Translations under genes and position numbers: made by a program | Part shown: piece after piece, positions 223 to 42,993 of the stretch | How the letters are laid out: the number at the start of each line of letters is the position of its first letter | How positions within the stretch are numbered: the stretch's first letter is position 1 | NCBI GenBank assembly: GCA_963793865.1 | Contig: CAWCBP010000008.1 | Coordinates: forward strand, 320,001-384,000 | Direction: 5' to 3' | DNA: 64,000 nt | Origin: an uncultured delta proteobacterium | GTDB lineage: Bacteria > Desulfobacterota > WTBG01 | The notes under the pieces: model-generated | What the model was told of the DNA's origin: nothing | Seen by the model: only the letters and a program-made list of their open reading frames with translations | The model's database searches: none

Positions 223-2842
223 ATGATGAAAAAGCTGGCCATTATATTTATCTGTGTATTATCGGTATGCATGGTCCCTGGTTCTGCCTCCGCTATCAGT
301 TATGGCAAGGATTTTTTGGAGACGGGAAACCCCGGAGGCACGAGCGGTCTGAAGACATTCGACATCGAGTGGTCCATGCGCCAGTTTGAAACGGTTGATG
401 TGGACATCTGGCTGATCGATGTGCCGGAGCGCATGCTGACGGCGGGTTTTTATTTTGTCTTCGATCCGGCCAAAGTGAGCGTTGCAGCCTTTCAGGTATA
501 TGATGGTGTCAATGGACCCGCGGGACCGTGGGACCCCGGCGCATCTTTGTTCGGTCCGGTTGAAGGCGACCCGGGCGCTTATTTTGTGGCCCTGGCCAAT
601 CTTGGCTGCGTAACCCCTGACGGAGGCGGAGATATTGTCATGGCCAGGATCCGCTTCAAGTGTGAATCGCCCGGAGATGCCGTTATTACCTTCAGCCCTA
701 TTCCTGATTTTGACACCGTTGTTGATTGTGCCCTGCCTCAAGGTGTTATCTATGACCCGGTTATTCCAGTTGAGGGCGTCACCATCCACCAGATAGGAAT
801 GCCTGGCGAATTCGGACTGCAATGACAATAACAGCTGCACCGCCGATTCCTGCAACCTGTCTTCGAATCTCTGCGTCCATGTGCCCGCTTCCCAATGGGA
901 CCAGCTGCCAGGACGGCCTCTACTGCACGGTATCCGATGGGTGCGCGGGAGGGGTCTGCGTGGGCGGTTCCGTGAGGGACTGCTCCGCGGCAGGAAACCA
1001 GTGCAATACCGGGGTATGCGACGAAGCTTCCGATCAATGTGTGTCCCAGCCGGTGCTGGACGGTACGCCCTGCAATGACGGCCTCTTCTGCACGCTCACC
1101 GACGGGTGCCAGGACGGTCAGTGCCTGGGGACGGGTGAGACCTGCCCGGATGATGCAAATGCCTGCACTGACAACTGTGATGAGGTGCGGGATGTCTGCT
1201 ACCCTGCAATGCGACCGGTTCCTCCGATCCCTGCTGCGAAGATTCTGTCTGTGCCAGTGAGGAGATTTGCCTGGTTGTCATAAACGAATTCTACGTTGAT
1301 GGGACGGACGGGAGCAACACGAACGATGGTCTGTCTCCCGCAACTGCCTGGAAGACCATCACCTATGCGTTAAGCCGGGTGCCGGTGCTGATCACCCTGG
1401 GAGAAAATAATCGCGCCCTGGTGCATGTTGCCCCGTCGCTCTATGATACGGTCATGGGAGGAGGAGACGCCGAGACATTTCCCCTGATCATGAAGAAGTA
1501 CCTCTCACTGGTCGGTGACGGGGGATACAGCGGAACCATCATAGATGCCGACCGGACCGGCGGCGTCATTGAGTTTGCCAAGGAGGATGCATCCGGCTCC
1601 ACCATTGCCATAGAGGGCTTTACCATCACCGGGGGCTCCAATTTCAGGGGCGGGGGGATTACGGTGCTCTGGGCTGACCCCTCAATCAGGCGCTGCCTGA
1701 TCACCGGCAACATTTCCACTGACATCAACGGCGGGGGCATTTACCTCCAGCGTTCAAACGCCGCCATAACCGACTGTATTATTTCGAACAACACCGCACC
1801 GCAACAAAACGGCGGCGGTATTTCCTGCGGCAACATGTCAAGCCCCGCCATCGTCAACTGTACCATTGTTAATAATGGTGCCGGGTGCGGTTCGGAAGAG
1901 GGCGGAGGCGGGGTGTATGCCGGGTACGATTGCTTTCCCCGGCTCATCAACTGCATACTCTGGGACAATTACCGGGACTGCTCTCCCGCCCCCGTTCCCG
2001 ACCAGATAAAGGCGGTGGAAAACATTGCGGTCAGCTACAGCTGTGTCCGGGACGGATTTGCAGGCATCGGTAATACCGCCGTGGACCCTGCCTTTTTCGG
2101 AGGGGAGTATTTCCTCTCCTACGGATCCCCCTGCATTGATTCGGGAACGAGTGACGGGGCAACCTTCACAGATATCGACGGAAACGGACGCTATGATCAC
2201 CTGGCCACCCCCGACACGGGCGGCGGATCGTCTCCATTCTTCGATATCGGAGCGCGCGAATATCAGAATGATACAGACGCTGATGGTGTTCCGGATGATG
2301 GAGATGAAGGCGGGACGGTGGGGGATAATCCCTGCACGGGCGGAGCGACCACAGGCTGTGATGACAACTGCATAAGCATTCCCAACCCCGCGCAGGAAGA
2401 CGGCGAAGGGGACGGCGCGGGGGATGTGTGTGACAACTGCCCGCTGTATCCCAACGGAATCATCCTCGGGACATGCCTGAAGCGGCAGAGCGCTGAAGTG
2501 ATTTTTGTATCTCCTTTGAGCTGCACCCGGGACGCTGATTGCGGCAGCCCCAATCTGCTCTGCGATAACGATCAGCTTGACGCCAACGCCAACGGGATAG
2601 GGGATGTCTGCCAGTGTGAGTTTGATTTCGACTGCGACGGCGATGTGGATGGCACCGACGCGGTTGTCTTCAAGGCGGATTTTGGAAGGAATGCCTTGAG
2701 CAGACCCTGCACCGTTGCCGATCCCTGCATTGCCGATTATGACGGGGACGGGGATGTTGACGGCACGGACGCGGTAAAATTCAAGGAGGATTTCGGCAGG
2801 AACGATATTAATAAGCCCTGCGCTTCCTGCTACGGCGAATAG
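223..2842 (+). CDS. Secreted modular protein: cohesin-like (class A) + Cys-rich repeats + DUF1565/right-handed beta-helix + TSP3-like repeats + dockerin-like tail; reconstructed across ~3 frameshifts
   Basis: AGGAGG RBS then MMKKLAII signal peptide. ORFs 85-825, 822-1283 and 1379-2842 join through frame changes at ~799, ~886 and ~1203. Bridging frames read CLANSDCNDNNSCTADSC and EFYVDGTDGSNTNDGLSPATAWKTITYAL. GGGI/GGGV beta-helix repeats follow, then a doubled DGDVDGTDAxxFKxDFGR motif at the C-terminus. Confidence 0.75.
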
Positions 2843-2879
2843 CAGCGAGCTTTGTGCGCAGGTGAAGGCCATCTGTGAT

Positions 2880-2916
2880 ATAAATCAGCCGGGCGCATAA
2901 GGCCCGGCTGATTTAT
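2880..2916. terminator. Perfect 15-bp hairpin, probable intrinsic terminator
   Basis: ATAAATCAGCCGGGC-gcataag-GCCCGGCTGATTTAT just downstream of the stop at 2842. Confidence 0.7.
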
Positions 2917-3077: not shown

Positions 3078-5537
3078 ATGCGGTTGAAGCAATTTCTGAG
3101 GATAGCCCTTTTTCTCCTGGCGGTAAGTTTTCTGACGGAAAGCCTGGGCTATCTCACCCATGAGATGTACCAGTACCTGGGAGTGGCACTGCTGGTCCTG
3201 TACGGGTTGAGCATTTTTCCCGGCGGCCAAAAAACCGGGAAAGCGGCACTCTTCTTTTCAGGCTGTCTGCTTATTACGCTCTCCTTTTTCTTCCTGAGCG
3301 GACCGATCCTTCCCCGGCTCGCCGGAACAGCGCTGTTCATCTTCGCGCTTATGCTTGTGGTGGAAAGCAGGAATGGGGAGCAGCGGGAGCTGCCGCTGCT
3401 CCTGGCTTCTGCGGTACTCTCCTCTGCTTTCTTTCTGCTGTACCTGTGTTCTCCGCCCTTCTGGTACGGGAGTAAACAGCTGTCCCTTTCCTTTTCCTCC
3501 CTGGTCAGCGGGGTGAGCGGCCTCCCCATTCTCTATTCCGCAACCTTCCTGGGTTTGCCGCTGACGGCCATCTTCCTGTCCGTCATGCTTCCCGCGTTTT
3601 TTCGAAGCGACAGCAGGAAGCGCCTTCTGTTTTGTCTTTCCCTCATCTCCCTGCCGGTGTTAAGCGGCCTCTACCTTGTAATCATGGGATATCTGCCCCG
3701 GCCGGGAAGAGCCCTTCTGGGGCTGTTCCCTGATGATACCGGTTTTTTCAATCTTCTGCTAACCTTTCTCTTCGATTCAAGCTCACCGCTCCCGCGCTGC
3801 AATTACCAGATGAATGCGCCGCTGGTTCTCTTCTTGCTCTACCTGGTTCCCCTGTATCTCATCTGCCGGGGACAAGGTGCAGCGGAGGCCGGCCCTGCTG
3901 TAAAACCGGGGAGGAAGAGAAACGCGCTTGCCTTCTTCCTGCTCATCATCCTGGCGACGGCGGCCCTGGTGACCGATATGCCCGGGACCCCTTCCGATAA
4001 AAGAAAGGTGGTGCTGTACAATCAGGGCTATCTCAACTGGCAGGTGCCCACCTTTAAGATGTACGGCTCAAAGAGCTCGGGCATGTTCGGGAACCTGCCC
4101 CTGTTTCTGGAAGCGATGGGGTTTTCCGTGGAACGATCCGATGCCATTTCCGCGGACGTGCTTCAGCAGGCCGGGATTCTGATGATGATTAATGTTGACC
4201 GGGAGCTGCCGCAGGAAGAGCTTGCGGCCATCCGGCGATTCGTTGAGGGAGGAGGGTCGCTCCTGCTGCTGGGCGATCATACCTTTTATAAGCACGGGGT
4301 GGAGCGGATTATTTTAAACGATGTCCTGCAGCCCTACAGCATCCGCTATAATTTTGATTCCGCCGACTGGTTTGTGGGGGGATGGCTGCACTCCTACCAG
4401 TACGCGAGCCACCCCGTCACCGCGGGCATGCGCGATGACATGAATGACGCGGGCATCGTGGTGGGCGCTTCGCTTTCGGCGCCGCCGCCCGCCTTTCCCC
4501 TGGTTATCGGCAGGTACGGTTATTCAGATCCCGGCAGCGCGCTCGCGGGAGACCGGCGGGGCTACCTGGGAAACCTCAATTACGATCCGGGCGAGCCGCT
4601 GGGTGATGTTGTCCTCTGCGCCGCCGAGTATCACGGGAAAGGCAAGGTGCTGGTCTTCGGCGACACCTCGAGCTTTGCCAACTCCATCCTGGTGAACAGC
4701 CATGATTTTGCCAACCGGGTGTTTACCTGGCTGGCCACAAATGAGGCCCCCCGGCAGTATCGCCTCTTCCTGGCCGCTTCGCTGCTGCTGCTTGCGGCGG
4801 CGCTCTTTTTTTACCGCGGGACGAGCCGGCGGCCCTACCTGCTGCTCATGGCCTGCATGCTGTCCCTGGCAGTGACGGGGGCATCCCGGGGCTTGAAGCA
4901 GTACGAGTGCCGGCGGGCGCTCAAGGGACCGATTGCCTACGTGGATGCGTCACACGGGGAGCGGTACTCCCCCGAGTCATGGAATGACAATGCCGTGCTG
5001 GGGCTTCATCTCAACCTGATGAGAAACGGCTATCTCCCCTTCACCCTCCGCCACTTTGACCGGAAGGCGCTTGAGGAGGCGAAGCTCCTGGTTTTGATTG
5101 CGCCCTCCCTGCCTTTCAGCCGGAGTGAGATCGGCATGATCAGCGATTTTATCAAGGCCGGCGGCACACTCATATTGAGCGTGGGATGGGAGGAAAAGGA
5201 GGCCTCGCTTTCGCTCATGGATGCCTTCGGCTTCTCCGTGGACCATATGCCCCTGGCGCAGTTCATCAGCGTGATTCCCGCTGCAGGGCAAAGGGTTCGA
5301 TTTGTCGAGGCATGGCCGGTCATGAGCAGGGAGGAGGGGGGCGAGGTCATCGCCGCCTATAAAAATTATCCGGTGATAATGAAAAAGCCGTATGGCAAAG
5401 GCACGGTGGTGATGGTCGGGGATTCCTCCTTTTTCTGGAACGCGAACCTGGAGATGGAGGAAAGCCACACAGTGGAGAACGTGGAGTTTCTGAAATGGCT
5501 GCTGGAGGGGCTGAGGCAGCCTGAAGGTTTTCGATAG
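3078..5537 (+). CDS. Large polytopic membrane protein with two DUF4350/GATase-like extracytoplasmic domains
   Basis: Hydrophobic N-terminal third. Two alpha/beta domains (FVEGGGSLLLLGDH; GKGKVLVFGDTS; GKGTVVMVGDSS) are separated by two TM helices. ATG at 3078 follows GAGG. Confidence 0.7.
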   Translation: MRLKQFLRIALFLLAVSFLTESLGYLTHEMYQYLGVALLVLYGLSIFPGGQKTGKAALFFSGCLLITLSFFFLSGPILPRLAGTALFIFALMLVVESRNGEQRELPLLLASAVLSSAFFLLYLCSPPFWYGSKQLSLSFSSLVSGVSGLPILYSATFLGLPLTAIFLSVMLPAFFRSDSRKRLLFCLSLISLPVLSGLYLVIMGYLPRPGRALLGLFPDDTGFFNLLLTFLFDSSSPLPRCNYQMNAPLVLFLLYLVPLYLICRGQGAAEAGPAVKPGRKRNALAFFLLIILATAALVTDMPGTPSDKRKVVLYNQGYLNWQVPTFKMYGSKSSGMFGNLPLFLEAMGFSVERSDAISADVLQQAGILMMINVDRELPQEELAAIRRFVEGGGSLLLLGDHTFYKHGVERIILNDVLQPYSIRYNFDSADWFVGGWLHSYQYASHPVTAGMRDDMNDAGIVVGASLSAPPPAFPLVIGRYGYSDPGSALAGDRRGYLGNLNYDPGEPLGDVVLCAAEYHGKGKVLVFGDTSSFANSILVNSHDFANRVFTWLATNEAPRQYRLFLAASLLLLAAALFFYRGTSRRPYLLLMACMLSLAVTGASRGLKQYECRRALKGPIAYVDASHGERYSPESWNDNAVLGLHLNLMRNGYLPFTLRHFDRKALEEAKLLVLIAPSLPFSRSEIGMISDFIKAGGTLILSVGWEEKEASLSLMDAFGFSVDHMPLAQFISVIPAAGQRVRFVEAWPVMSREEGGEVIAAYKNYPVIMKKPYGKGTVVMVGDSSFFWNANLEMEESHTVENVEFLKWLLEGLRQPEGFR

Positions 5538-5647
5538 AGGGAACTATTATAGTAATAAATCCGAAATCCGAAGCACGAAACCAGAAACTGCGACCACGAA
5601 GCGCACGAAGGGAGAAACACGAAGAACACGAAGAGAGACACAAAATC

Positions 5648-5709
5648 GTAGGGGCAACCCCCTGTCGTTGCCCTATGATAGCTGGGCAGGCACAGGGGCC
5701 TGCCCCTAC
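5648..5709. repeat. GTAG-type REP-like palindrome, family 1
   Basis: GTAGGGGCAACCCCCTGT.GTTGCCC...GGGCAGGCACAGGGGCCTGCCCCTAC. Near-identical copies at 8692-8753 and 59025-59086. Confidence 0.85.
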
Positions 5710-5963
5710 CGGTTCTTTGCAAAAACAAACCGGAACACGATGAGAGAAGCAACCCCAGAAAAACATGAAGGAAGAATCGCATTTTTCCCGGATCGTGCGA
5801 TCACTTCGCCGGATGATCACGCAAACATTTGCATTGAGAATATACTTCACTTTTCGTATCCTCTGCGATTATCGTTTTGAGCATTAGATATTTGAATTTT
5901 AGGTTTGTTTCGATTTCGTGCTTTGGATTTCGGATTTTTAATTTTCATATCTCCTCGGATGAG

Positions 5964-8519
5964 ATGCTCCCTATAAAAAGGTTATCTATGACCCTCATTC
6001 TCTGGTCCGGTCTCCTGTGCCTCTCCTGCACCTGGATCTTTACCCTTAAGCTCTATACTTCTGAGATAGATGCCTGGTGGATTACGCTCCTGATTGCGGG
6101 CATAGTGCTCAACGCCGCGGGGATGAAGGGGAAAGCGTCGTTTAAGGCCCTTGATAAAAAGTACCTGCTCCTGCTTATTCCTCTTGTCTCCTCCCTTCTC
6201 ATTATCCCTTTTCCGTACAGCCTGGGTATACTGGTGACGATCGCGGGCCTGCTCCTCCTTTCCCTGTGCCCCGTGCTTCCGTTTCTCTGCGCTCCCGCAT
6301 CAGGGCTCATCCTGAGCGGGGTGATGCTCATGGTACAAAGTCCGCTGGGACATCTCTACACGGTTTTTACTTCCTACTCCCGGAACATTTTCTGGCTGGA
6401 TGGCATCCTGCAGCGGCTTTTTGCTTTTTTCAGCCTCCAGGTCTTTTACAGCCAGCACCATTTTTACATCCAGACCATCAAGGATTTGTATGCCTTTCCC
6501 ACCACCTGGGACCGGCTCGGCTTCTTCCCCCTGCTGGCATTGTGGGCGGGCTCCATTCCGCTGCTCTATCTTTTCTCCGGTCAAAGGACAAGGGACGCCC
6601 TGAAGCTCTTTGCCTGCGGCATGATATATAGTATCGCGCGATATGTCTTTCTGATCCTGCTTTTCCTCTACCTCATGACCTTTGTGCCTTACAAGGAGGA
6701 GGTGAACCGGGTCCATATTTTCTGGGACGCCAGGGTGATCCTGCTGACATTCCTTCCCTTCATCTTTCTCCTCTGCAGGTGTATTCCTTTTAAAACCCGG
6801 GATGCTGTCTTTGCCTATGACAAGGTCTCCTTTTCAGGCGCTAATAAAAAATCGCTGGTCTACTGTTCCCTGGCGCTCTTTTTTCTCGGGGCTGTTTTCG
6901 GCTTCCAGGATCCGGGGAGAAAAAAGGAGGGCAGGGTGCTCCTGGACGAGCGGCACAGCGGCTGGGAGAAGAGCACCCGGAAGATGGACACGGAGTGGTA
7001 TGGAAACGAGTCCGGGTACAATTTTTACTGGATGGCTGAATTTATAAACCACCATTTTCCCCTGAAGAGAAATTTCGACGAGATAACACCTGAGATTCTT
7101 TCCGGGTGTGACATCCTCATTCTCAAGAACGCCACCTCGCCGTTCTCCGCCTCGGAAGTTGATGCCATACGCAGGTTTGTGAGGAGGGGAGGGGGCCTGT
7201 ATATTTTAAGCGAGCACACCAATGTCTTCGGCAACAGCACCTATCTCAACCCGATTGCCGAAGAATTCGGCTTCAGCTTCCGCTATGACGTGCTCTTTGA
7301 TATAGAGCGAAAGTTTGAGCAGCTCTACCATCCGCCCCGGCTGAATCCCCATCCCGTGGTCCAACATCTGCCCTACTTCTGCTTCAAGGTCTCCTGTTCG
7401 GTCCAGCCGGTGTCTTCACGCTGCGAGCCGGTGATCCTTTCCACGGGGATCAAGTCGCAGGACATCCATTATCCCAGCGCCAATTTCTACCCCCCGGTCA
7501 AGGACGAAAGCCAGATGCCCTTCGGCGCCTTCATGCAGATGGTGGGCATCAAGGCGGGCAGGGGCAGGGTGCTGGGGTTTACCGACAGCACCACCTACTC
7601 AAACTTTGAGGCATTTATAGCAGGCAAGCCCGAATTGCTGCTGTCGGCTCTTGACTGGCTCAACCGGGAAAACCGGTGGCACCGGCTCAGGTATCTCTTC
7701 CTGTCTCTTGCCGCCATATGCCTTGCCGGGGCCTTGAGACAGGGCAGCAGGGAAAGGCGCGACGGGCGCTTCTATCTCTGGATTGCGGTGCTCTCCCTTT
7801 TTTCCCTTGCGTGCGCCCTGCTTGCCTGCCAGTTCCTGTCCCGGAATGCATATCCATTGCCGCAGCCGGTCACCCCGTACACGAAGGTTGTTTTTGAGCA
7901 GGAGCACGGAGACTACGAGCTGCCGCTCCAGGGCTTTACCGACAAGGCGGACAGGAGCTTCGAGGTTTTTTACCAGTGGGTATTAAGAATCGGCTACTAT
8001 CCGTTTACCGGAAGAACCCTCACGGATGATCTGGCCGAGGCGGACATGCTTATTGTCATCAACCCGCAGAAAGAATTCACTCCTGCCGATATCGGCCGGG
8101 CACAAGAGTACCTGGCACGGGGCGGAAAAATCCTGGTCATGGATAACCCGGACAACAGCGCTTCTACCGCGGATGGGCTGCTTGCGCCTTTCGGCATGAA
8201 AATAAACAGGGAGAAAAAGGTGACCCTGCCTTCCTCCTATACTTTGTCCTGGATGGGCAGGACTGCGCAAAACAGCGCTGCGGCCATTGAGGGAGGAGAA
8301 GCTCTCCTTCGATCCCCTGAAGGCGAGCCAATACTCTCCATGGTGAAGGCAGGGAGCGGTACAATGGCGGTGCTGACCTTCTCCCGGCTGTTTACCAATC
8401 CCCCCATGGGTGGTAGCTACCGGGTGATGCCCAATCAGCAGCAGCGGGCGATCTATGATCTGCAGTTCAATCTTTTGCGGGGACTGGGGGAAGGAAAATT
8501 GGAGACATATTTTAAATGA
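5964..8519 (+). CDS. Large polytopic membrane protein, paralog of 3078-5537
   Basis: Same architecture: TM block, domain with FVRRGGGLYILSEH and GRGRVLGFTDS, two TM helices, second similar domain. The start codon is uncertain (5964 or 5988). Confidence 0.7.
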   Translation: MLPIKRLSMTLILWSGLLCLSCTWIFTLKLYTSEIDAWWITLLIAGIVLNAAGMKGKASFKALDKKYLLLLIPLVSSLLIIPFPYSLGILVTIAGLLLLSLCPVLPFLCAPASGLILSGVMLMVQSPLGHLYTVFTSYSRNIFWLDGILQRLFAFFSLQVFYSQHHFYIQTIKDLYAFPTTWDRLGFFPLLALWAGSIPLLYLFSGQRTRDALKLFACGMIYSIARYVFLILLFLYLMTFVPYKEEVNRVHIFWDARVILLTFLPFIFLLCRCIPFKTRDAVFAYDKVSFSGANKKSLVYCSLALFFLGAVFGFQDPGRKKEGRVLLDERHSGWEKSTRKMDTEWYGNESGYNFYWMAEFINHHFPLKRNFDEITPEILSGCDILILKNATSPFSASEVDAIRRFVRRGGGLYILSEHTNVFGNSTYLNPIAEEFGFSFRYDVLFDIERKFEQLYHPPRLNPHPVVQHLPYFCFKVSCSVQPVSSRCEPVILSTGIKSQDIHYPSANFYPPVKDESQMPFGAFMQMVGIKAGRGRVLGFTDSTTYSNFEAFIAGKPELLLSALDWLNRENRWHRLRYLFLSLAAICLAGALRQGSRERRDGRFYLWIAVLSLFSLACALLACQFLSRNAYPLPQPVTPYTKVVFEQEHGDYELPLQGFTDKADRSFEVFYQWVLRIGYYPFTGRTLTDDLAEADMLIVINPQKEFTPADIGRAQEYLARGGKILVMDNPDNSASTADGLLAPFGMKINREKKVTLPSSYTLSWMGRTAQNSAAAIEGGEALLRSPEGEPILSMVKAGSGTMAVLTFSRLFTNPPMGGSYRVMPNQQQRAIYDLQFNLLRGLGEGKLETYFK

Positions 8520-8691
8520 TGCATGATACAGGATGCATGATGCAGGGCGAAAGACAAAGCAGTTTACAGTTGCCGGTTGACAGTTTAAACGTAAAGCAAG
8601 AAGCGATGCAAGATGCAGTATGGGCCTGCACACTGTTCCCTGTCCCCTGAACCCTTTTTTTCAACCAGAATACGAAGAGAAAAACAAAATC

Positions 8692-22227: not shown

Positions 22228-22268
22228 GGCACTCATCTCTAACTGTCCCATCGTTTACTTTAGTGTGA

Positions 22269-32248: not shown

Positions 32249-32351
32249 GGATGGTGGATCCGGTACCCAGCGCCCTGTCAAGCGGCATGCATATGACCAC
32301 TGCGGTCAGCATGAATGCACTGAGAAACCATAAACCTGACTTTCTACTCAT
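30597..32351 (-). CDS. Secreted PQQ-type beta-propeller protein without a dockerin tail
   Basis: Near-identical to the propeller of 27492-29816. It has a different signal peptide and ends right after the last blade. Confidence 0.85.
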   Translation of the reverse strand: MSRKSGLWFLSAFMLTAVVICMPLDRALGTGSTIHPWPSFRHDLLNSGAATDSGYPATAAKLWMQDREFRAWAPTTRADSRGPSVVDRGMIITAGSGVIQANDQFTGGLLWHQHFLWQAPTEPAGAPTDWCYNDIPMLEGNTGVCYTTGTCPSWCFECTTTQPDCTDFSLIAPLPFPAGYDQFITGPTMDPNYGTNGCVIFGTFDGRVISLNMNDGSTIWERTPYKDPGGPNVGKPWYNQKWAWHLSPPSISNGKLYIGSFLPSFYAIFRPWAYVTEGQPGYPWPTIGNDATHYWAGRDGYFYGLDEDNGDVLWTWNPRGCGVTNIPPVQNGKVFIEADTATDYHYGQFATVDADTGAELWHHGTIPLAQGGTQAISGDTLFAPGGDGALWALDIDDGQVKWTHWAGFNVKGHTALCSAPAVDESRGYVIGIADTGSMFVLNKDTGRIIKEAFLGVPTWNVFDPHPVSGYWLPGPSGISISPQDGLLYVAATDYDRAWIDSNTYGREKLFCYDYVSDPDTLVPVWEYQFCKDDNCSTQANEFIVRGHDPYVVAWYSVPSPALADGHVYYSSTNGKIYCFGDPYP

Positions 32352-32665: not shown

Positions 32666-35021
32666 CTAATACCAGCACCACCGGGGCGTATCACATTTGG
32701 TACAGGGGTTGCTGTATGCGCTTCTGCCGAAGTCTGATTTAAACAGCGACGCATCAGAACCGTCGACGTTCCCGTTGCAGGTAAAATCACCGTTGCAAAG
32801 GTTACTATTGGTACAGGGGTTGCTGTACGTGCTTCTGCCGAAATCCGCCTTGAAGGCTGCTGCATCACCGCCATCCACGTCCACGTCGCCATCGAAGTTA
32901 CCCTCACATTCACAGGCGTTGCCGCAGTTGTTACCGCCCGGGGGGTAGGTATCTTGCTGGAGGGGATTGGAGAGAATGGAGCAGTTGTCACAGGCGTTCC
33001 CCACGCCGTCACTGTCACCATCTTCCTGGCTGGTGCTGCAGACACCGCCCGTCCCGCAGTGGGCGTTGCTGGTGCAGATCACATTGACATAACCGCTCAT
33101 GCAGGTGCCCATGCTTGCGGCGTTGGGTGCCGAAGGACAGTTGTCCGCGCTGTCTGATACACCATCCTCGTCCATGTCGTCAGTCAGGCCGTTGAGCTGT
33201 TTGAAGACCTTCGCCCCGCCAAGTCCCGAAGGGGTGGAGCTTGCGCCCTTACTGCCGGCAACATACAGGTGACTGCCGAAAACGGCAAAACCCTCAAAAT
33301 TGATTATTTCCGGGTCTCCAAACCCGTTGCCGGTTACCTGGGTCCATGTCGTTACGTCAGAGGTTTTCCATATCTGCGATCCGAGCATCTCATCAATGTT
33401 GGCGGAGCATTGTATTCAGGAACATATTGACAGATAATCCCGCCATACAGGGTGCCGTTAACGGGAAAAGGTTTACCGCAAGGTTCTGGTACGCGACACC
33501 AAAGAAGGGGTAATCCTGAGGATATTTATATCCGTCAAATCCATTAGGATAGGGGGAATCTCCCAGGGGATCAACATAGGAAGGGTCAACGGGGTCCACA
33601 TTGGCTTCACCAACGGCGTACTGCCAACTTCCATCATCTTTAATTTCGGAAAGGCCACTTTGCGCAGAGAGCACCCGCGCCCCATCGCCTACAACCCCTA
33701 CCATAAGATTATTGTCAAAATCAGCAAGACTCCAGGGCATGAAATTGTATTGATTGGTTCCGCACCCCGGCGGGCTTCCGAACCCGTTTTCATTACTGCC
33801 GGTGGTGTTGCCGTCAACCGCGTTATCGACGATGAGCTCCCATCCGAACTCGGTAAGCCGGGCCATGCGCGCGCATCCGCCCAAATCACCGCCGGTGCCG
33901 GTTCCCCCCGCATACAGCACCGGCGTTCCGGAAACTGAAGATACTGTCAGGTCGGATACGCTGCTTGAAACGGGCTTATAGCCCCCGGGATAGGCAGCGC
34001 TGTTGGAGTGGAAATTGCCGAAGCTGTGGTAGTTATAGGGTGCAGGGATACTCAGGACGGAGGGGGTTACAAACCAGTCATCGCCGTTCTCGGTGTACCA
34101 GATCTGCCCTCCGGTTTCATAGTTCAGCCCCGTGCTCACGTAGAGCTTGTTATCAAAAATACGCATCGCGGTAATGGTCTTGTTCCAGAAGTCACCAAAA
34201 CCGTTTTCATCGTCCCCCATGCCGATTTCATAGGAATTGCCGACTGCGACCGCTCCGAGTGTATAAGAATAGGAAGGAAAGGGATTGTTATAAACGGCGC
34301 TGCTGCAGTTTGTGTATTCGGTTTCCACACCGCCGCTGTAAGTGCCGGCCGTTTCGTTCTGCTGAACCGTAAGGGTATTAGCTGTATTGCTTACAATTAC
34401 AAACCTTCTATAGATGCCGGAGCCTGAGGTTATCTGCAGCACCCCGCCGGCCCATTCATTGGGCGACCACGCTTGTGCGCTGTCAGTAATATCGGCTGTT
34501 CGAACCCCATCTCCTGCGGCGCAGCCGGCAATACCGGTTATGGTTCCGGATTCTTCCGCGTCTCTCTTATCTGAAATTACCGCCTCCCAGTTTGTCCCAT
34601 CATAGCGCCAGATCTCCGCGCCGGTTGAACCAAGGTAATTTCCCTGCAGGCCGGAAGAGAGTCCGAAATAGAGCTTGTCCTGAAAAACAATCATCCTGGC
34701 CCATACGTTGTTGATGTGAGTATTGCCATATACCCCGTTGGTTTCACCACCGGGGAACAGCACCTGTTCCCAGCCTGTTCCGCCCGTCCGCCAGACTTCA
34801 GTGCCCTCCAGCTGATTCCTGGTCATGGCATACAAATTTCCCCCGTATTCGGCCATCGCCACCACCGACATGTTATCATCGCTGCCGAAACCCGGCGGAT
34901 TTACCTGCACCCACAGTGAACCGTCTTCACCGGTAATTGCCTGGGACCATTCAGGTGAGATCAGAAGCAGTGGCAAGATGATGATTAAGGTGATGATTGA
35001 TTTTGATAAAATACTTCTCAT
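32666..35021 (-). CDS. Secreted probable beta-propeller protein + TSP3-like + dockerin-like tail; two frameshifts at ~33458 and ~33397
   Basis: Repeated GFG...N and EVWR/EIWR/QIWY/QIWK blades. The bridging frame reads NGTLYGGIICQYVPEYNAPP between ORFs 33393-35102 and 32666-33388. Confidence 0.72.
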
Positions 35022-35168: not shown

Positions 35169-38100
35169 CTACGGTGCAGCCGTGACCCCAAATCCCTCCC
35201 AAATAATCTCTCCACTTTGACTCTTGGAGTCAGTCACCACACAGCGGACAGCGTAGGTCCCCTCGTCACCGGCTTGCGGGGTCCACGCCCAGGTGGTGCT
35301 ATTAGAACCAACCGTGGTCCAGCCCGGATCTGCTGCTTCCTTAATTGACCAGGCATAAGTGTATGGCGATGTGCCGCCTGTCACCACAGTAGCCTGGAAG
35401 GTCACACTCTGGCCAACCGCGGTGCCCTCCTTTTCTCCGTTGGAGAGATACACCATGGGCTTGATGATTGCGTTAACCACCTGTTTTGCCAGCAGCTGTC
35501 CCACCCGGGGATCATTGTCGGGCGGGGCGTACATTTCCCAGGTACCCGTGTACTGGTCCTGCACCGGGTTATTGGGATCAGGTGCACCCACGAGGGGATC
35601 ATATCCCAGGTGTCCGAAATCGCTCAAATCGTAGGCAAGCGATGGATCCAGATCATGCGCCCGGTCGGGTAGTGGGGTGAGCCGGGGCGCCGGATACGGC
35701 CGCGGCAGCGGATCATCAGCGCAGCCTCCCATCACGAAGCAGCAGTCGGATGAAAGGGTCTGGGTTTCAGTGCCGTTAGCCAGCGCATTGCCGAAAGGAG
35801 TCTTGTCATCGCGGATGGTCTCATTATCGCTGAAGGAGCCGACCAGATCCTTAAGCACAATCCTGCCCGCGGCGTTTCCGCCGGCCCAGCTCCCGCTTTC
35901 CACCGCGACCTGTTTTATGATGCCCGTCGCTCCCGATGTTTGACCGACGAGCTTTGCCCCCGGCTCGAGAGAAACCGGGTTGGTGCCGCCGCCGGCTATC
36001 TGCGAGGTTCCACCGTCAAACAGGAGTTCCCACTCGCCGCAATCCTGGTATACCCAGTTGCCCCAGTAATCGGCAAAGGGGTGGCCAACGACGGGATACC
36101 TGGTGAAATCACCCACGCTCCACAGCGCCCAGTTCTTTATGCCGATCTCCTTGCCGATCTGGTTGGGAATTTCAACCATGTCCAGCGCCGAGGAGGTAAT
36201 GATTTGGGTGAAGCCGACCACGATATGCTGCACCCCCTTGGTATTTACCAGGTAATCGATGGCATCCCAGTAGAGATATCCCCAGGGGTGAAATTTCCCT
36301 CTCGGGTCTGAAGGATTGGGATACCCCGCGCTTGAAGGAAATTCCTTTGTCGTCTCGTAAAGGTACTGGTGCCCCAGGTTTTCCCCGCGCATAAAAATGG
36401 TTCTTTCAAGTAACGAGTGCTCTGCTTCGGGGTTTAGTTCTTTGACACCCATGCGGGCACCGATGATGTTATCCGGGTCCATGGTGGGATGGAGCGCGAC
36501 GAGCTGGTCCTTGATGTTTTCATTCAAAACCACGGTATCGTTTAATTTGGGATCGAACACCTCGTCCAGATCGTTGATGGCATGGTTGAGGATGATGACC
36601 CCCGTATTTGCATCAGAAACGGTCCCTGAGAATGATGCCTCTATTGCCTCCCTCTGCAGCGTGGCCAGGTCGGGATCCGCGGCAACCGGGTTGGGACTTC
36701 CGTTTAGCAGCACTTCACTGTCCTGGGTCGGTAGTGCCCCGGTAGACCTGGTCCACCCCGCCGGAAGAATGGGATAGGAGCGTTTCATGAGATCACTGTA
36801 GTCGTTGACCCAGAGGAGGGGAACGGTAATACCATAAGTGTTCTTCCATTCATCGAGGCGTTTCTGGGACATGTTTTTCACATCGTATGTCTTGGAGAAG
36901 CGCACGCCGCCGACGGTGAGGTCAACCATGATGATCCGGTACACACCCTGCTTGAGCAGCCGGTCTATCGGTCCGTCCACGTTGTAGCGATTCGGGTCGC
37001 AACCGGGCCAGGGACCGCCGGGCTCCCCCTCTCCGCAGTAGGTGCAGTTGGTGCCAACGCCGGGGCCGTCAGGGCCGTAGTAAATGAAGCGGGGGTAAGG
37101 ATAATGGTCGATGCAGTCCCCGCACATCCATCCCGCCCAGTCAGTGGCAAAATCAATGTTATGGCTGTCGTTTTCAAGCTCGGTCTCCATGTCAGACAGC
37201 TGATCCAGAGTCAGGCCGCCGAAGGGATCTGTTCCCCCGATGCGCGGATACTCAAAATCATACTTGGCCATAAATTTTAAGGAGGACTCAGCCGTCAGCA
37301 CAAAGTCCCAATAGGCGGGGTTCCAGATGGCCAGCTTGTAAACACTGTTGTTGGGATCGTATGAGAACTGCTGTACCCCGGTGTCCCAGATATACTGATC
37401 TACATTGGTATCTGTTCCGCCATGCACGGTAAACAGCACTCCCACCGGCCGGCCGGCGGCAGGGCAGGGGTTAGTGAGTGACGTTCTGCCGAAGTCTGAT
37501 TTGAACACTGCTGAATCAGTACCATCGGAATCGCTATCCCCGTCAAAATTGCCGTAGCAGGGGTTATCATAAGTGCATGGATTGCCGCTGAGAGTACTTC
37601 TGCCGAAACTCTTCTTGAACACTGCTGCATCCGTTCCATCCTGGTCCAGGTCGCAGTCGAAATTCCCCTCGCAGTCGCAGGCATCACCCACGCCGTTCCC
37701 GCCTGCGGGAGAAGTGTCTTCCTGGTTGGTGCTGCACACACCGCCGGTTCCGCACTGGTAATCAGCTATACAGGTTCTCCCCTTCACACCTTTTGTACAG
37801 GTACCCAGATTTGGACCGTTGGGGGTTGAGGGACAATTGTCTGAACCGGTGCAGGAAACATCAGATACACCGGGATTGCAGATGCCATCACAATCATCGT
37901 CTATATCTTCATTTGTCTGTACATGACAGTCTGTGCAATTACCCCCCCGGGGGATATGATTTTGTACTTCGTAGCATTGAGAATGGCAATTGGCGCAGCC
38001 CGACGTTTCAACCGGACCAGGCCCGGTATTTGTTCTGCAAGGAGATCCTGTGCCCCCGTTATGGCAAAGCAAACATTCGGCAGGGTCTGTTAGCCCAATT

Positions 38101-38261
38101 TGCGTAAAATGGAAAGCGTGAATGTTGCTGCGGGAATGGCACTGAAGGCAGTTCTGAGCTGCAGGTGGAGCGACGCATTCGTAGGCGAAAGCGGTGCAGG
38201 TAAACGCGGATACAATGAAAAGTAGAGTTATACCTAGTATTCCATGCTGAACCTTTTTCAT
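35169..38261 (-). CDS. Secreted fusion: tetraheme c-type cytochrome + TSP3/dockerin-like + ferrochelatase-like domain + PKD/Ig-like C-terminus
   Basis: CLQCH, CLLCH, CANCH and CTDCH, then an internal FK.xFGR pair. Chelatase-like motifs: VGVLFTVHGG, YPRIGGTDP, KQGVYRIIMV, IILNH and KGVQHIVV. Confidence 0.75.
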   Translation of the reverse strand: MKKVQHGILGITLLFIVSAFTCTAFAYECVAPPAAQNCLQCHSRSNIHAFHFTQIGLTDPAECLLCHNGGTGSPCRTNTGPGPVETSGCANCHSQCYEVQNHIPRGGNCTDCHVQTNEDIDDDCDGICNPGVSDVSCTGSDNCPSTPNGPNLGTCTKGVKGRTCIADYQCGTGGVCSTNQEDTSPAGGNGVGDACDCEGNFDCDLDQDGTDAAVFKKSFGRSTLSGNPCTYDNPCYGNFDGDSDSDGTDSAVFKSDFGRTSLTNPCPAAGRPVGVLFTVHGGTDTNVDQYIWDTGVQQFSYDPNNSVYKLAIWNPAYWDFVLTAESSLKFMAKYDFEYPRIGGTDPFGGLTLDQLSDMETELENDSHNIDFATDWAGWMCGDCIDHYPYPRFIYYGPDGPGVGTNCTYCGEGEPGGPWPGCDPNRYNVDGPIDRLLKQGVYRIIMVDLTVGGVRFSKTYDVKNMSQKRLDEWKNTYGITVPLLWVNDYSDLMKRSYPILPAGWTRSTGALPTQDSEVLLNGSPNPVAADPDLATLQREAIEASFSGTVSDANTGVIILNHAINDLDEVFDPKLNDTVVLNENIKDQLVALHPTMDPDNIIGARMGVKELNPEAEHSLLERTIFMRGENLGHQYLYETTKEFPSSAGYPNPSDPRGKFHPWGYLYWDAIDYLVNTKGVQHIVVGFTQIITSSALDMVEIPNQIGKEIGIKNWALWSVGDFTRYPVVGHPFADYWGNWVYQDCGEWELLFDGGTSQIAGGGTNPVSLEPGAKLVGQTSGATGIIKQVAVESGSWAGGNAAGRIVLKDLVGSFSDNETIRDDKTPFGNALANGTETQTLSSDCCFVMGGCADDPLPRPYPAPRLTPLPDRAHDLDPSLAYDLSDFGHLGYDPLVGAPDPNNPVQDQYTGTWEMYAPPDNDPRVGQLLAKQVVNAIIKPMVYLSNGEKEGTAVGQSVTFQATVVTGGTSPYTYAWSIKEAADPGWTTVGSNSTTWAWTPQAGDEGTYAVRCVVTDSKSQSGEIIWEGFGVTAAP

Positions 38262-38688: not shown

Positions 38689-39189
38689 TCACTCAAAGCA
38701 GAAAACGCCTTTTTTCACCCCTGCGGGAAGAGGGTTTCTTTCTTCATCAGAAACCTTGACATTTTTTGAGGTGATATCAACACATCGGCCTTCAGGGGCT
38801 TCTTCCGATACATCATAGCTGACATTGATGATCTGGCCCGCCTCCGCAGGAATCGCATTGCCGCTTAATGATACGAGCATTATTCTGAAGCAGCCGTCGG
38901 AAAGCTCGTTGAATGCGCAGGTGAATCCGGAAGCATTGCCCACGGCTTCGCAACCGACACCCTGCAGGTAGTTTCCTTTATCGCAGATATCCGCTTGAAT
39001 GCCTTTGACCGTGTTGGCAGGATTGTCAAGGGTTATCTCCACCAGGTTGTTTTCACTGCCCGGGGATCCTGAGCCGTTTTCAATGGTCAGGTAGATTTCC
39101 GCCTGTTGGCAGGAGGTCAGGCAGATGATGGCCAACGGGATGATCATAAGCATTGCTTTTGAAGTAAGGGTAAAGTGTCTCTTGTTCAT
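38689..39189 (-). CDS. Lipoprotein consisting of a single cohesin-like (class B) domain
   Basis: Lipobox LTSC, then VEITLDN...IQADICD.GNYL..VGCE...FTCAFNEL.DGCFRIMLVS. Confidence 0.75.
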   Translation of the reverse strand: MNKRHFTLTSKAMLMIIPLAIICLTSCQQAEIYLTIENGSGSPGSENNLVEITLDNPANTVKGIQADICDKGNYLQGVGCEAVGNASGFTCAFNELSDGCFRIMLVSLSGNAIPAEAGQIINVSYDVSEEAPEGRCVDITSKNVKVSDEERNPLPAGVKKGVFCFE

Positions 39190-39226: not shown

Positions 39227-40795
39227 TTACTTTCTTTTGCGGACCAGCAAAATACCGGCGACGGCAATAAAAGCTGCCAGTGCAATCAGGGTACCGGGGA
39301 AAAAGGGGCTTCCGGACTTGGCGGTCCCGCCCTCAACAGCGCCGCCGTCTGCCGGGCCGGCCGGGGAAAATGCATCGCCCGGTGCCACGGTTACCAGCGC
39401 ATCGCTGCTGAGATTATCCCTGCTGTCTTTTATCATAATAATGTCGAGCGATTCCTCATTGGTCCTGTTGATGCCGGCTGTATATAAGCCCGCCCCGGTA
39501 ATGGTTGAACCGATTTTACTGCTCACTTTCCATTGGTATGCACCCTCGGCGCAGGTTTTGCCGACTTTTTTTGCAGTGAAGGTTATGACATTTCCGGGAG
39601 AGATTTCCGCCGAAGAGGGGGTCAGCAGCAACGCACAACCTTCAGAAGGTTCCTTTATGCCTTCTATGGTTATGGTTGCCGTCGCGCTCATGCTCTTATT
39701 TGAGGTGTCTGTTACACGGATGGTTTCCTGAACCGGCGAGCCGGAGGCGTTGATGCCCGCAGTAAATATCCCGTCCGCATCGATGGTGCTTCCGATGCCG
39801 CTTGGCGGAAATATCTCCCACCTGTACTTTCCCGTTACCTCTCTGCCTCCCGCGATGGTTTGAGCATCGAGCGCCAGTATTCCTTTGGAATTGATTACCG
39901 ACAGGGACGGTGAGATGATCAGCCGGGATTCCTCGCTTGCGGAGTCGCTTTTTGTCCCGGATGCCCCGGCGGAACGTGTATCGCTCTCCCGGGAGGCGGC
40001 GCTGCTTTTGCTGCCGGCAGTCCGGTTGCGGGAAGAGCCTCCGGTCGAGGTAAAGGTGTCAGTCTCAGGGGAGGCTTCCTGCACGCTGGTGGTCAATCCC
40101 CCCATGGGGGTTCTTAAGCCTGCCTGTGGATTTGCCGCGGCATTCGTGGAGTTGGTGGCGGGGGTTCCGGCCGCGGGTTCGTCCCCCGCGGTTTCAGGGC
40201 TTTCCGTGTTACCGGTATCGCCGGAGCGAGGGGTGGTGGTTGTGTCATCGCCGCTGCCGCCGCTGATGCAAAACTCACCACGTTCCGGCATGACAGTTAA
40301 TCCCCTCGAATTTAGAACTCCCGGGATTTCTGGACGTGCGACTTTTGCGAGCCTTGGATTGAGCGAGATGCAGCCGGAGGGTGCATTTTCTGAAACTTCG
40401 TAAGTGATTCGGGCGATTGGTCCATTGCCAGGTGCAATGGTATCCCCGAATCCCATAAGCGATATATCAGCGCATCCGGGAGCCTGCCGGCATGCAGCGA
40501 TCTTTGCATCGGTTCTGCACTCGTTCACGTAACAGGAAAGGCTGGAAGCGCGGCCCGTAGACGCGCAGCTTTTGACGGACAGATAATTGCCTTCATCACA
40601 AATATAGACATGCACCCCCGTCACGATGTCAGATGCATTGTCGAGCGTAAGCGTTATGGAACCGTTTTCTGAACCGGCCTCCGCCGAGCCGTTTCCGATG
40701 TCAAGAATGACATCTTCGGCGTATGCCCCCGGGCAAAAACAAAGGGCTGCCAGCAGACCAAGCAGTGATACAAGGGAGGGATTCTTAGATAGCAT
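39227..40795 (-). CDS. Surface protein: cohesin-like (class B) + S/T/A-rich linker + two Ig-like repeats + C-terminal TM anchor with basic tail
   Basis: Signal peptide, ITLTLDN...ICDEGNYL, IGSTI...G..TAG twice, and the ending SPFFPGTLIALAAFIAVAGILLVRKRK. Confidence 0.75.
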   Translation of the reverse strand: MLSKNPSLVSLLGLLAALCFCPGAYAEDVILDIGNGSAEAGSENGSITLTLDNASDIVTGVHVYICDEGNYLSVKSCASTGRASSLSCYVNECRTDAKIAACRQAPGCADISLMGFGDTIAPGNGPIARITYEVSENAPSGCISLNPRLAKVARPEIPGVLNSRGLTVMPERGEFCISGGSGDDTTTTPRSGDTGNTESPETAGDEPAAGTPATNSTNAAANPQAGLRTPMGGLTTSVQEASPETDTFTSTGGSSRNRTAGSKSSAASRESDTRSAGASGTKSDSASEESRLIISPSLSVINSKGILALDAQTIAGGREVTGKYRWEIFPPSGIGSTIDADGIFTAGINASGSPVQETIRVTDTSNKSMSATATITIEGIKEPSEGCALLLTPSSAEISPGNVITFTAKKVGKTCAEGAYQWKVSSKIGSTITGAGLYTAGINRTNEESLDIIMIKDSRDNLSSDALVTVAPGDAFSPAGPADGGAVEGGTAKSGSPFFPGTLIALAAFIAVAGILLVRKRK

Positions 40796-41007
40796 GGTGT
40801 GTTATCTCTCCAAGACTGAAAAAATGCCCCATGACGGGTAAAATAAGCTGACCAGGTAATAATCAATTATTTGCATGAGTGTCAACTATAGTCCCCGATT
40901 TCTATCTATTGCCTTTCGAACGATTATAGATGAATCAACCCATGTCCGGCAAATCATATTTAGTGAACGTTTCGGTATATTAATAAGTTTTATTTACATG
41001 TATCTTT

Positions 41008-42993
41008 TTAATAAGTTGGCGGGAGGTTACTCCCCGCCTGATTTTTCTTCAGCAACTCCAAAAGATCCCGGGGTATGGTGTGCCCGAGTTTTTGTATCGT
41101 TTCACATTCCTGTGCGGCTCGTGAATAATTACCCTGCAGGCAGTGAACATAAGCAAGATTAATATGTCCGGTGACCAGGGCTGGATTAATAGCCAGTCCT
41201 TTTGTAAGGTATACGAGTGCCTGATCAAAACTGTTTGTATTGAGATAGGCGGCACCGAGGTTGATGAGTGTTTCGGCGTGGAGCGGCTTTATTAAAAGCA
41301 CCTTTTGATAGGCGGCAATGGCATCTTCATAACTGCCCTTGTTTAAAAAGGCATTGCCGAGGTTATAGCGAGCCTCAATATATCTGGGGCTGATGGACAA
41401 AGCCTTTGCGTATGCCGCTATGGCGCTTTCGAGCCTGTCTTCCTTGGCATAAACGATGCCCAGGTTGTTGAGCGTCTTGGGATGATTGGGCTGCAGGGCC
41501 AGTGCCTGCTCATACACGGTGGCCGCGTCTTTTAATCTCCCCTGCCTGGTATAGGCCGCCCCCAGGTTATTATATCCTTCCAGATGCTCGGGGTTGATGC
41601 TCAGGGCTTTTTTAAAGTATTCCTCGCCCCGGGCCGGATTTCCCTCCTGGGTGACAATGATGCCGAGATTGTTATACGCCATCCAGGATCGGGGATTTTT
41701 TTTGAGCGTGTCCATCCACAGCGCGGTTGAGTCGCGATAGGCATATGACTGCTGCCAGGTTAATATCCCCAGCATGAGCAGGACGATAATCCCGATGCAT
41801 GTTTCCGCGTTTCGCAATCGCGCTGCCGCGCGGCTGCTTACCGTGCCTGTCCATGCGTCGAATTGCCGCCGTATGCCGCCCACAAACACCGCGATCAGTC
41901 CCAGGCTGGCAAGGTACTGGTAATGATCGGCAACGAATGAGTAGCGCATGGTGTAGTAATTGATGAACCCCAGCATGGGGGCCAGGGTTATGGCGAACAC
42001 GCACACGCCGGTCAACGGTCCGCGCCCCCATCTGTTTCTCATGTGCCACAGGACAAAGAGAAGCAGCACCAGCGCGAGGTGCCATCCGTACTGTTCCAAC
42101 GCAAAGGGATCCAGCGTCCACTGGGGGTAGGAAAAGGTGAGATTCACCGGCCAGAGCAGCTTGAGCATATAAAAGCACAGGGCCCGGCCTGAAAGAAGCA
42201 CGCGCTGGAAAAATGAAAAACTGAAGTCTTCTCCTATCGTTCCCTGATGATTAGCTTCCCACCAGCTTGAGAGCAGGCCCATTGCCAAACCGGCTGCCAT
42301 GAAGGGAACAAGCAGGCTTACCTCTCTCCGGGTTATGCGGCCTCTCCTCCACCAGCCCAGCAGGAGTATGACCAGCGGCAAGGTCAGGATCACCGTCTTG
42401 CTCAGGAGCCCCAGGGCAAAAAGAACGAAAGCCTGGATATACCAACGCCAGTGCCGGTTCTCCTCATAGCGCAGGTAACTCATCAACGCCAGCAGGCAGA
42501 ACATTCCCGATAAGGTGTTCTTCAGCTCCGTAACCCATGCCACCGACTCCACATGCACCGGATGAAGCGCAAAGATTGCGGCAGCCATCCAGGCCCCCTG
42601 CAGCTTGAGCCGGGTGAAGAGCAGGAAAACAAGCATGGCATTGAGGGCGTGCAGCGCTATGTTGACCAGGTGATATCCCGCGGGATTGAGATCCCACAGC
42701 CGGTGCTGAATCAGGAGCACGGTATAGGTGAGGGGGAAGTATTGAGAAGGGCTCTCGGTGGTGAACCAGATGCGCCGCAGCCCATCGGGGGCGGTTAACA
42801 GGTGGTTTTCAGTAACGTAGAGATCATCATCCCAGATGAAACCGGCGTGCGTTGCCGGATAATAAGCGATGCAGGCAATAATAAAGAGCACGATGAGCGG
42901 GCGCCAATCCCATCTCTTGCCGGGAATAACAGCACGCGGTGTTTGCGGTGCAGGTCTATCAGCCCCTGCTTGTTTTTTAGATTTCTTTCCCAT
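41008..42993 (-). CDS. TMTC-like GT-C membrane glycosyltransferase with TPRs
   Basis: FIWDD, QYFP, FALHPVHVESVAWVTE and ADHYQYL, then a TPR array. Confidence 0.85.
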   Translation of the reverse strand: MGKKSKKQAGADRPAPQTPRAVIPGKRWDWRPLIVLFIIACIAYYPATHAGFIWDDDLYVTENHLLTAPDGLRRIWFTTESPSQYFPLTYTVLLIQHRLWDLNPAGYHLVNIALHALNAMLVFLLFTRLKLQGAWMAAAIFALHPVHVESVAWVTELKNTLSGMFCLLALMSYLRYEENRHWRWYIQAFVLFALGLLSKTVILTLPLVILLLGWWRRGRITRREVSLLVPFMAAGLAMGLLSSWWEANHQGTIGEDFSFSFFQRVLLSGRALCFYMLKLLWPVNLTFSYPQWTLDPFALEQYGWHLALVLLLFVLWHMRNRWGRGPLTGVCVFAITLAPMLGFINYYTMRYSFVADHYQYLASLGLIAVFVGGIRRQFDAWTGTVSSRAAARLRNAETCIGIIVLLMLGILTWQQSYAYRDSTALWMDTLKKNPRSWMAYNNLGIIVTQEGNPARGEEYFKKALSINPEHLEGYNNLGAAYTRQGRLKDAATVYEQALALQPNHPKTLNNLGIVYAKEDRLESAIAAYAKALSISPRYIEARYNLGNAFLNKGSYEDAIAAYQKVLLIKPLHAETLINLGAAYLNTNSFDQALVYLTKGLAINPALVTGHINLAYVHCLQGNYSRAAQECETIQKLGHTIPRDLLELLKKNQAGSNLPPTY

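Follow-up and report, generated by a model that had tools for sequence, protein, structure and literature searches.

What are cohesin-like and dockerin-like modules doing in a region that carries no recognisable glycoside hydrolase? The question is raised by a stretch of 64,000 nucleotides (the window; positions 320,001-384,000 of contig CAWCBP010000008.1, C8) from an uncultured delta proteobacterium (GCA_963793865.1, G000; 3.85 Mb, 14 contigs, 98.6% complete), which we compared with relatives (numbered from G001) in a survey of 41 genomes; L-numbers denote single loci or contigs. A preliminary description had proposed a surface assembly based on one cohesin-dockerin pair, confined to one island and served by its own maturation machinery. 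We consider it fairly probable that the window holds the structural heart of a two-tier cohesin-dockerin assembly system that extends across the genome of an uncultured Desulfobacterota lineage and is wired as proposed below.

Profiles seeded from the window paralogues and run over six-frame open reading frames (ORFs) of G000 recovered all 13 modules described earlier, seven cohesin-like domains and six dockerin-like motifs, and sorted them into two cohesin and two dockerin classes in place of a single pair. CohA occurs three times (304-792, 15857-16348 and, on the minus strand, 25937-26398) and CohB four times (14454-14864, 19078-19506 and, on the minus strand, 38695-39096 and 40265-40711); the two profiles do not match each other by HHalign. 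Five DocI modules (2600-2839, 12412-12675, 27495-27749, 32669-32923, 37419-37688) are accompanied by one DocII (14868-15173). Across G000, DocI has 76 matches, 59 full and 17 half or weak, and 50 of the full copies lie within ten residues of a stop codon. CohA has 21 matches when fragments are counted (18 by genome search), CohB 19 and DocII nine, eight of them directly after a CohB. A C-terminal IPT/TIG-like domain, here called X, has 14 matches.

General annotation misses these modules. In the window, Pfam gives only sub-threshold matches to cohesin (E 0.003 and 0.004) and dockerin (E 0.0004); the best PF00963 score of both cohesin classes is 20.0 bits against a cut-off of 24.1, and the genome search returned none. 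Over the whole of G000, Pfam finds one dockerin and no cohesin, versus the 59 full DocI copies found by their own profiles. None of 79 adaptor homologues carries a cohesin annotation, and 29 of them have the full CohA-CohB-DocII order. Searched against 1.84 billion representatives, the CohB profile matches 387 clusters at E 1e-10.

Predicted structures support the assignment of CohA, CohB and DocI. CohB (about 140 residues) has the cohesin beta-sandwich fold, as has CohA; 6kgc, 3ul4, 5nrk and 2y3n are among the top structure matches, and 2xdh, 2ozn and 2w1n also match directly. DocI has the dockerin fold of two repeated calcium-binding loop and helix segments. In the model of copy 32669-32923 the helices span residues 18-27 and 55-64 (pLDDT 81.8), the D10/13/15/17/20-type positions are conserved, and homologous tails exceed the PF00404 threshold in six of seven cases. 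DocII has two GD..D..D loop-helix repeats, with four helices in the model, and resembles the G003 tail by HHalign (38%, E 3e-4); its sequence search against the PDB gave no dockerin among the matches. From their Asp/Asn positions, both dockerin classes may bind Ca2+. The high cysteine content noted earlier is borne out (6-13 per CohB, mostly 8-9 per DocI), and putative signal peptides are present on the module carriers of the window. A Foldseek search with the 620-residue adaptor retrieved only multi-Ig chains (rmsd 21-55 Å) and was uninformative.

The modules are combined in many ways. G000 encodes CohA-CohB-DocII adaptors (three intact, one probably split), CohB-DocII behind other heads, DocI-CohB-DocII, DocI-DocII, CohB-CohB-DocI, CohB-CohB, CohA-DocI and Coh-X proteins, as well as CohB with a transmembrane tail and a CohB lipoprotein. 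Two cohesins share a chain in G000, four CohB and a dockerin do so in G003, and up to five cohesins occur among the representatives; scaffoldins with several cohesins, a trait of cellulosomes, are present. Anchor, adaptor and cargo roles, as well as both folds, were anticipated by the preliminary description and are supported here.

Module genes start 11.4 kb upstream of the window, and the feature is larger than first described. From there to 40.7 kb, the cluster holds 11 of the 19 CohB, three of the nine DocII and four CohA, but only eight of the 76 DocI. The window itself contains only five of the 59 full DocI, which are spread over nine contigs. The cluster around the window is a scaffold locus and its cargo is scattered through the genome. 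The idea of one island is not upheld. Conservation of gene order in relatives is supported.

Cargo was surveyed in the window and in 43 (of 63) and 28 (of 31) module ORFs; those dropped were minor fragments and a number of ORFs with cohesins only. The families include peptidases M14, M1 and S8, GSDH and PQQ_2 propellers, rhodanese, alpha/beta hydrolase, metallophosphoesterase, Lcl_C, CBM96, LamG, beta-helix proteins and cytochromes c; many cargo ORFs have no match. In four DocI ORFs there are 2-9 CxxCH motifs. The window and the scanned module ORFs yielded no catalytic glycoside hydrolase, in agreement with the preliminary description. In the window, the sole match named for such an enzyme is to a trimerisation domain (PF08532, below threshold) of a membrane protein, and one marginal, partial PF00150 match lies elsewhere in G000. 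A GH48 search gave no match in any control genome and carries no weight. Classification as a cellulosome member was rejected because the scanned ORFs hold no cellulase or hemicellulase cargo. The window scan gave no SLH match and no known sorting signal; candidate anchoring elements are a transmembrane tail, a lipoprotein-like signal and domain X.

Several further observations concern secreted proteins of G000. Multihaem cytochromes with 3-9 CxxCH motifs end in DocI or domain X (C14:77481-80159, C12:80093-81007, C1:980104-981324, C14:331628-332383 and C14:3565-4566), which suggests that the two ends are alternative tethers for redox proteins. A lone half-dockerin repeat sits close to the N-terminus of about ten secreted proteins, of which several also have Lcl_C domains and two are led by a riboswitch (examples at C2:56760-61012, C12:121379-124570, C1:724895-726376 and C4:262471-267010). 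At L013 (C1:1201534-1204954), the genes immediately after tRNA-Sec encode an S8 peptidase with DocI and a CohA on its own.

The module types co-occur in relatives, as the preliminary description led us to expect. Counts of CohA/DocI/CohB/DocII are 18/72/19/9 in G000, 7/14/12/4 in G001, 5/17/6/2 in G002, 12/70/16/6 in G003, 6/19/1/0 in G008 (68% complete) and 11/31/14/2 in G037, the DocI counts of G003 and G037 coming from a G003-type profile. Sparser sets occur in G006 (1/1/0/0), G005 (0/2/2/1), G007 (0/2/0/1), G031 (2/0/0/0), G035 (2/0/0/0, the CohA matches weak) and G014 (0/0/0/1). By these profiles the other 29 of 41 genomes have none of the four classes, and four of the 29 have one generic Pfam dockerin. 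Each of the six genomes with at least 14 cargo dockerins has at least five CohA, and CohB occurs in only three of 401 genomes of the phylum. A core gene order (selenoprotein, CohB-X, two TMTC, selenoprotein, CohA, DocI) recurs in G001 and is partly kept in G002, G003, G008 and G037. The host is diderm, as stated earlier (bamA is present in G000); dsrA was not found over the cut-off in any of five genomes searched. Records with close relatives of the modules bear the titles uncultured Thermodesulfobacteriota or delta proteobacteria; one short contig is labelled Dehalococcoidales. The latter (L049, 2.5 kb) carries DocII, CohB and X modules and may reflect transfer or mis-binning.

A riboswitch-like element heads the cluster. 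An RF03167 site lies 12.3 kb upstream of the window, and four of the eight such sites in G000 fall within 1 kb upstream of a module gene (1.7% for random sites, binomial P 5e-6); RF03167 also heads the matching clusters in G001, G003 and G037. Related deltaproteobacterial aptamers sense cGAMP. The scaffold is probably riboswitch-controlled, with a putative cyclic dinucleotide as ligand. The RF03167-type variant is grouped with the c-di-GMP classes (PMC12452182).

Which sockets take which plugs is indicated by a type switch within the genus. By rpoB, the species-distance marker (aroA is missing in G002, G003, G006 and G008), G003 is 94.8% identical to G000 and of the same genus, G001 94.2%, and G008, of another genus, 83.7%. 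The G003 tail motif is VDLxDLVIMKxEF versus VDGSDAxxFKxDFG in G000, and its CohA reaches at best only 24% identity to G000; G008 keeps G000-type modules. In quick LG trees (with 14 of 40 G000 DocI rows), CohA and DocI each place G003 and G037 on one side of a branch (one change, SH-aLRT 99 each). The CohB (13 changes) and DocII (three changes) trees have no such split, and five of six G003 DocII group with G000. CohA-DocI fusions are type-matched in 16 of 16 cases, and CohB is found with both DocI types (20 and 14). Because CohA and DocI switch type jointly and CohB and DocII do not, the comparison suggests CohA:DocI and CohB:DocII as the predicted pairs. Complex prediction for CohA and DocI scored 0.30 and 0.10 against a mark of 0.32; it gave no answer and is counted neither way.

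Under this wiring, membrane-tethered CohB (by transmembrane tail, lipoprotein or possibly domain X) would bind the DocII of adaptors such as CohA-Ig-Ig-CohB-DocII, and the CohA sockets of the adaptors would bind DocI on about 60 exchangeable cargo proteins, among them peptidases, rhodanese, hydrolases, propellers, Lcl_C and lectin-like domains and multihaem cytochromes. Binding would depend on Ca2+ and the modules would be braced by disulfides. A cyclic-dinucleotide signal would turn the scaffold on, and TMTC-like enzymes and the U-G-C selenoprotein could help subunits mature as general envelope factors recruited by the locus. Given such control, attached or aggregated growth would most likely be served, with enzymes, adhesins and redox proteins displayed outside the cell.

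Several points weigh against this proposal. The case for the pairing comes down to what is in essence a single type switch, the CohA tree was flagged for long branches, and the matched CohA-DocI fusions could be explained by fused genes travelling together. The G003 adaptor is also more distant overall (CohA/CohB/DocII 24/49/68%, versus 45/74/93% in G001). G005 and G007 have two DocI each and no detected CohA, G031 and G035 have CohA and no detected dockerin, and cross-binding is conceivable because the G037 cargo dockerin and DocII share a DIFD motif. No outer-membrane export route turned up, no search having been aimed at type II secretion or other routes, and the transmembrane tail and STN-like domain fit the periplasm equally well.

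The modules could instead be wired as in classical cellulosomes, with multi-CohB proteins as cargo-binding scaffoldins (CohB:DocI) and DocII docking on CohA, or with all classes cross-binding. CohB does outnumber DocII (19 versus 9 in G000, 16 versus 6 in G003) and forms tandem proteins of up to four or five copies, and G005 has DocI, CohB and DocII with no detected CohA. In cellulosomes, moreover, the dockerin of a scaffoldin as a rule does not recognise the cohesins of that same protein. We nevertheless think this arrangement unlikely: the CohB consensus stays constant while DocI recognition positions change from GS/GT to LA or IF across genomes, the CohB tree is not split by DocI type, and G008 has 19 DocI but one CohB (at 68% completeness). 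The assembly might also be periplasmic, inner-membrane cohesin anchors holding enzymes and cytochromes there. An anchor that ends in a transmembrane tail and matches no known sorting signal, the STN-like domain on one CohA protein, c-type cytochrome cargo and the diderm envelope would suit such a location, which we consider quite improbable in view of the stalked subunits of 1250-1670 residues in relatives, the adhesin- and lectin-like cargo and the c-di-GMP-class control, all of which favour an outside structure.

That the modules do not bind at all seems very improbable. DocI would then be a self-contained, Ca2+-binding, disulfide-rich tail for export, stability or adhesion, and the cohesin folds would be spacers. 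The DocII-fused CohB does abut its dockerin without a linker, much like an X-module, and forms its own clade, and single dockerins occur without these cohesins in four genomes outside the family. Free CohB proteins with membrane tethers exist, however, both module types share a rare and patchy co-occurrence, and CohA and DocI switch type together. A bolder extension of the two-tier system, which we hold only tentatively, is a self-extending, branched, disulfide-braced and glycosylated lattice in place of a single long scaffoldin, switched by the riboswitch and carrying about 60 cargo proteins, in which the plug and socket swap between congeneric species amounts to a species-private docking code. 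Under either wiring, socket and plug of the same tier share one chain in several subunits (CohB-DocII, CohA-DocI), and CohB-CohB-DocI and DocI-DocII proteins cross-link the tiers. Self-polymerisation is possible but not implied, because DocII-fused and free CohB belong to different subgroups with different predicted face residues.

The locus also encodes candidate maturation factors, and the two selenoproteins, three TMTC-like genes and DsbA-like gene of the preliminary description are all present. The selenoproteins belong to OS_HP2/DUF1573, a listed selenoprotein family (PMC9312934), and show its U-G-C motif and an in-frame UGA at the same place in four G000 copies and most copies of relatives. 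The Sec machinery is present (selA in five of five genomes, tRNA-Sec in G000), and hairpins form after the UGA with z-scores of -0.27 and -1.04. OS_HP2/DUF1573 genes lie in the cohesin clusters of all six system-rich genomes, yet they occur in 33 of 41 genomes. TMTC-like proteins have strong TPR matches, PF08409 scores of 21.5 and 25.7 bits (cut-off 27) and PF13231 over its cut-off in one of three. Human TMTC1-4 O-mannosylate cadherin domains (PMC10214176). Eight of 15 TMTC-like loci in G000 lie within 5 kb of a module gene (18% expected, P 0.002, the loci not being independent), and of the 25 ORFs that contain Thr runs, nine also encode a module. Genomic linkage supports an accessory role for both gene families, which may be shared with other envelope functions; exclusivity fails, a further point against the proposal. 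A dedicated maturation machinery was rejected: the genes are syntenic, but TMTC-like genes occur in 38 of 41 genomes, including most relatives without the system, and DsbA-like and GIFT-domain genes have close orthologues in one of five. The GIFT-domain membrane gene and DsbA-like gene (3078-10407) are 61-63% identical to genes of G037, of another family, and were not found in four closer genomes; because of this distribution they may form a mobile accessory block.

The left part of the window lies on the plus strand. The gene at 223..2842, split by frameshifts, encodes a signal peptide, CohA, Cys-rich repeats, a beta-helix and DocI, and L115 holds an intact 894-residue orthologue (75-80% identity). 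Two membrane proteins with GIFT/DUF4350-like domains by Pfam (3078..8519) are considered accessory; the second has an orthologue in one of five relatives, G037, beside a dockerin gene. The DsbA-like thioredoxin-fold protein (8818..10407; CVHC, PF13462 E 1e-24) is a candidate oxidative-folding factor with a 61% orthologue only in G037 among five system-bearing genomes, and is not conserved core. A cargo protein with signal peptide, TxCP repeats, TSP3 and DocI (10843..12678) precedes the frameshifted adaptor (13132..15176), which has an unassigned head, a Thr-rich linker, an Ig-like domain and CohB abutting DocII (703-residue intact orthologue in L113). The frameshifted gene at 15776..17478 joins CohA to a Cys-rich and Thr-rich linker and domain X (17161-17475). 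It is followed by the first selenoprotein (17686..18804; TGA 18010-18012 in PG-U-GC, NF041425 116.1 bits, cut-off 100), a candidate anchor of CohB, Thr-rich linker and X (18985..20154; X at 19783-20100), and two TMTC-like GT-C/TPR genes (20316..24569; PF08409 and PF13231 weak, TPR strong), the first frameshifted and the second at 22269-24569. This pair is syntenic in G001, G002, G003 and G008.

The remaining module genes are on the minus strand. The second selenoprotein (24741..25757; TGA 25541-25539) is 42% identical to the first, with TGA at the same position. Next come a protein with an STN-like domain, HEAT repeats and C-terminal CohA (25934..27163), whose neighbourhood is kept in G001 and G002, and a cargo protein with a PQQ_2-type beta-propeller, TSP3 and DocI (27492..29816). 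A propeller paralogue 91% identical to the latter lacks the dockerin tail (30597..32351); the two look like the tagged and untagged form of one protein. The first of the propellers reported earlier is of the PQQ_2 type, whereas the fold at 33393 was not confirmed, Pfam giving no match. That position lies in a frameshift-split cargo gene with C-terminal TSP3 and the DocI copy used for folding (32666..35021). The cargo at 35169..38261 has four CxxCH motifs, an internal DocI, a large unassigned domain and an Ig-like end; the chelatase half of its earlier cytochrome/chelatase label has no Pfam or PDB sequence support. Two candidate anchors follow: a single CohB behind a signal that looks lipoprotein-like by eye (38689..39189), and CohB with a spacer, a C-terminal hydrophobic helix and a basic tail (39227..40795), which has a like protein in G037 and no match to an NCBIfam sorting signal. 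The third TMTC-like GT-C/TPR gene, from the general Pfam scan, is at 41008..42993. Beyond it lie two phosphodiesterase/sulfatase-like genes and a sulfotransferase, possibly for glycan modification (43242-49130), and an apparent minus-strand operon of a double methyltransferase, two radical SAM genes and an EamA transporter (49300-54875).

Short palindromic intergenic repeats of several families occur at 5623-5721, 8667-8765, 10450-10486, 12965-13100, 15203-15571, 18879-18954, 27303-27373 and 30481-30538, some of them very deeply covered in metagenome contigs of unrelated origin. We take them to resemble REP-type elements and leave them out of the system. Frameshifts split five genes of the window, four with starts at 223, 13132, 15776 and 20316 and a fifth that ends at 32666. 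Many other G000 genes are frameshifted, and rpoB is in three pieces. Intact orthologues of the first three broken genes exist in metagenome contigs (L115, 894 residues; L113, 703 and 815 residues). The breaks are most likely assembly errors, because intact orthologues span the pieces and rpoB is fragmented too; contigs of four related DNA runs, being short, did not settle the matter.

Clostridial cellulosomes with type I and II pairs (Acetivibrio cellulolyticus, Clostridium thermocellum, Pseudobacteroides cellulosolvens) share the folds, the anchor, adaptor and cargo roles, two module classes, dozens of dockerin-tagged proteins and Thr-rich linkers. The present system differs in its diderm host, Cys-rich modules, mostly one or two cohesins per chain in G000, socket and putative cognate plug on one chain and riboswitch control; its scanned cargo includes no catalytic glycoside hydrolase, and SLH gave no match. 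It is a scaffold resembling complex cellulosomes, yet not a cellulosome. Cohesin-dockerin use outside cellulose degradation is also represented by the structural matches from Archaeoglobus fulgidus (2xdh) and Clostridium perfringens NagJ/NagH (2ozn, 2w1n). These sets are small and are not known to include a genome-wide tagged secretome.

Non-cellulolytic anaerobes provide closer ecological parallels. ANME archaea (PMC9012536) and their syntrophic sulfate-reducing partners (PMC10553843), which include Desulfobacterota, have such modules; ANME scaffoldin-like proteins carry up to five cohesins, and a role in adhesion or surface attachment was proposed. Those sets come from standard domain annotation with partners unassigned, whereas the G000 modules escape Pfam; dsrA was not found in any of the five genomes searched here. 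The hypothetical "Planctosome" of Nemodlikiaceae (PMC6461901) and the Ca. Stygibacter complex (PMC8542988) are likewise diderm and cellulosome-like, with anchor, adaptor and dockerin-tagged M14 and S8 peptidases, and the planctosome anchor carries TSP3 repeats, as here. In the accessible parts of these sources the models have few components, against about 100 modules in four classes here, and a type switch, riboswitch or linked selenoprotein is not described. As presented there, the non-cellulosomal sets of ANME, syntrophic sulfate reducers, Planctomycetes and Cloacimonadota are hypotheses without assigned partners (PMC9012536, PMC10553843, PMC8542988, PMC6461901, PMC11557425). A literature search that covered few subscription papers found no account of a system in this lineage that is two-tier, rich in cysteine and led by riboswitches; S10 Table of PMC10553843 and S4 Data of PMC9012536 may list relatives. 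The scale, four-class hierarchy, Pfam invisibility, coupled type switch and riboswitch control are new here, and the kind itself is known.

Outside cellulose degraders, the cohesin-dockerin cases published for diderms and ANME consortia lack assigned partners. Surveys based on Pfam miss whole systems of this type (one match versus 59 full copies). If the binding proves true, the modules would offer disulfide-stabilised, orthogonal plug-socket pairs for protein engineering. For the biology of these bacteria, the lineage provides a set as large as that of a cellulosome, together with a wiring hypothesis, a naturally occurring change of specificity between two congeneric species and a regulatory clue.

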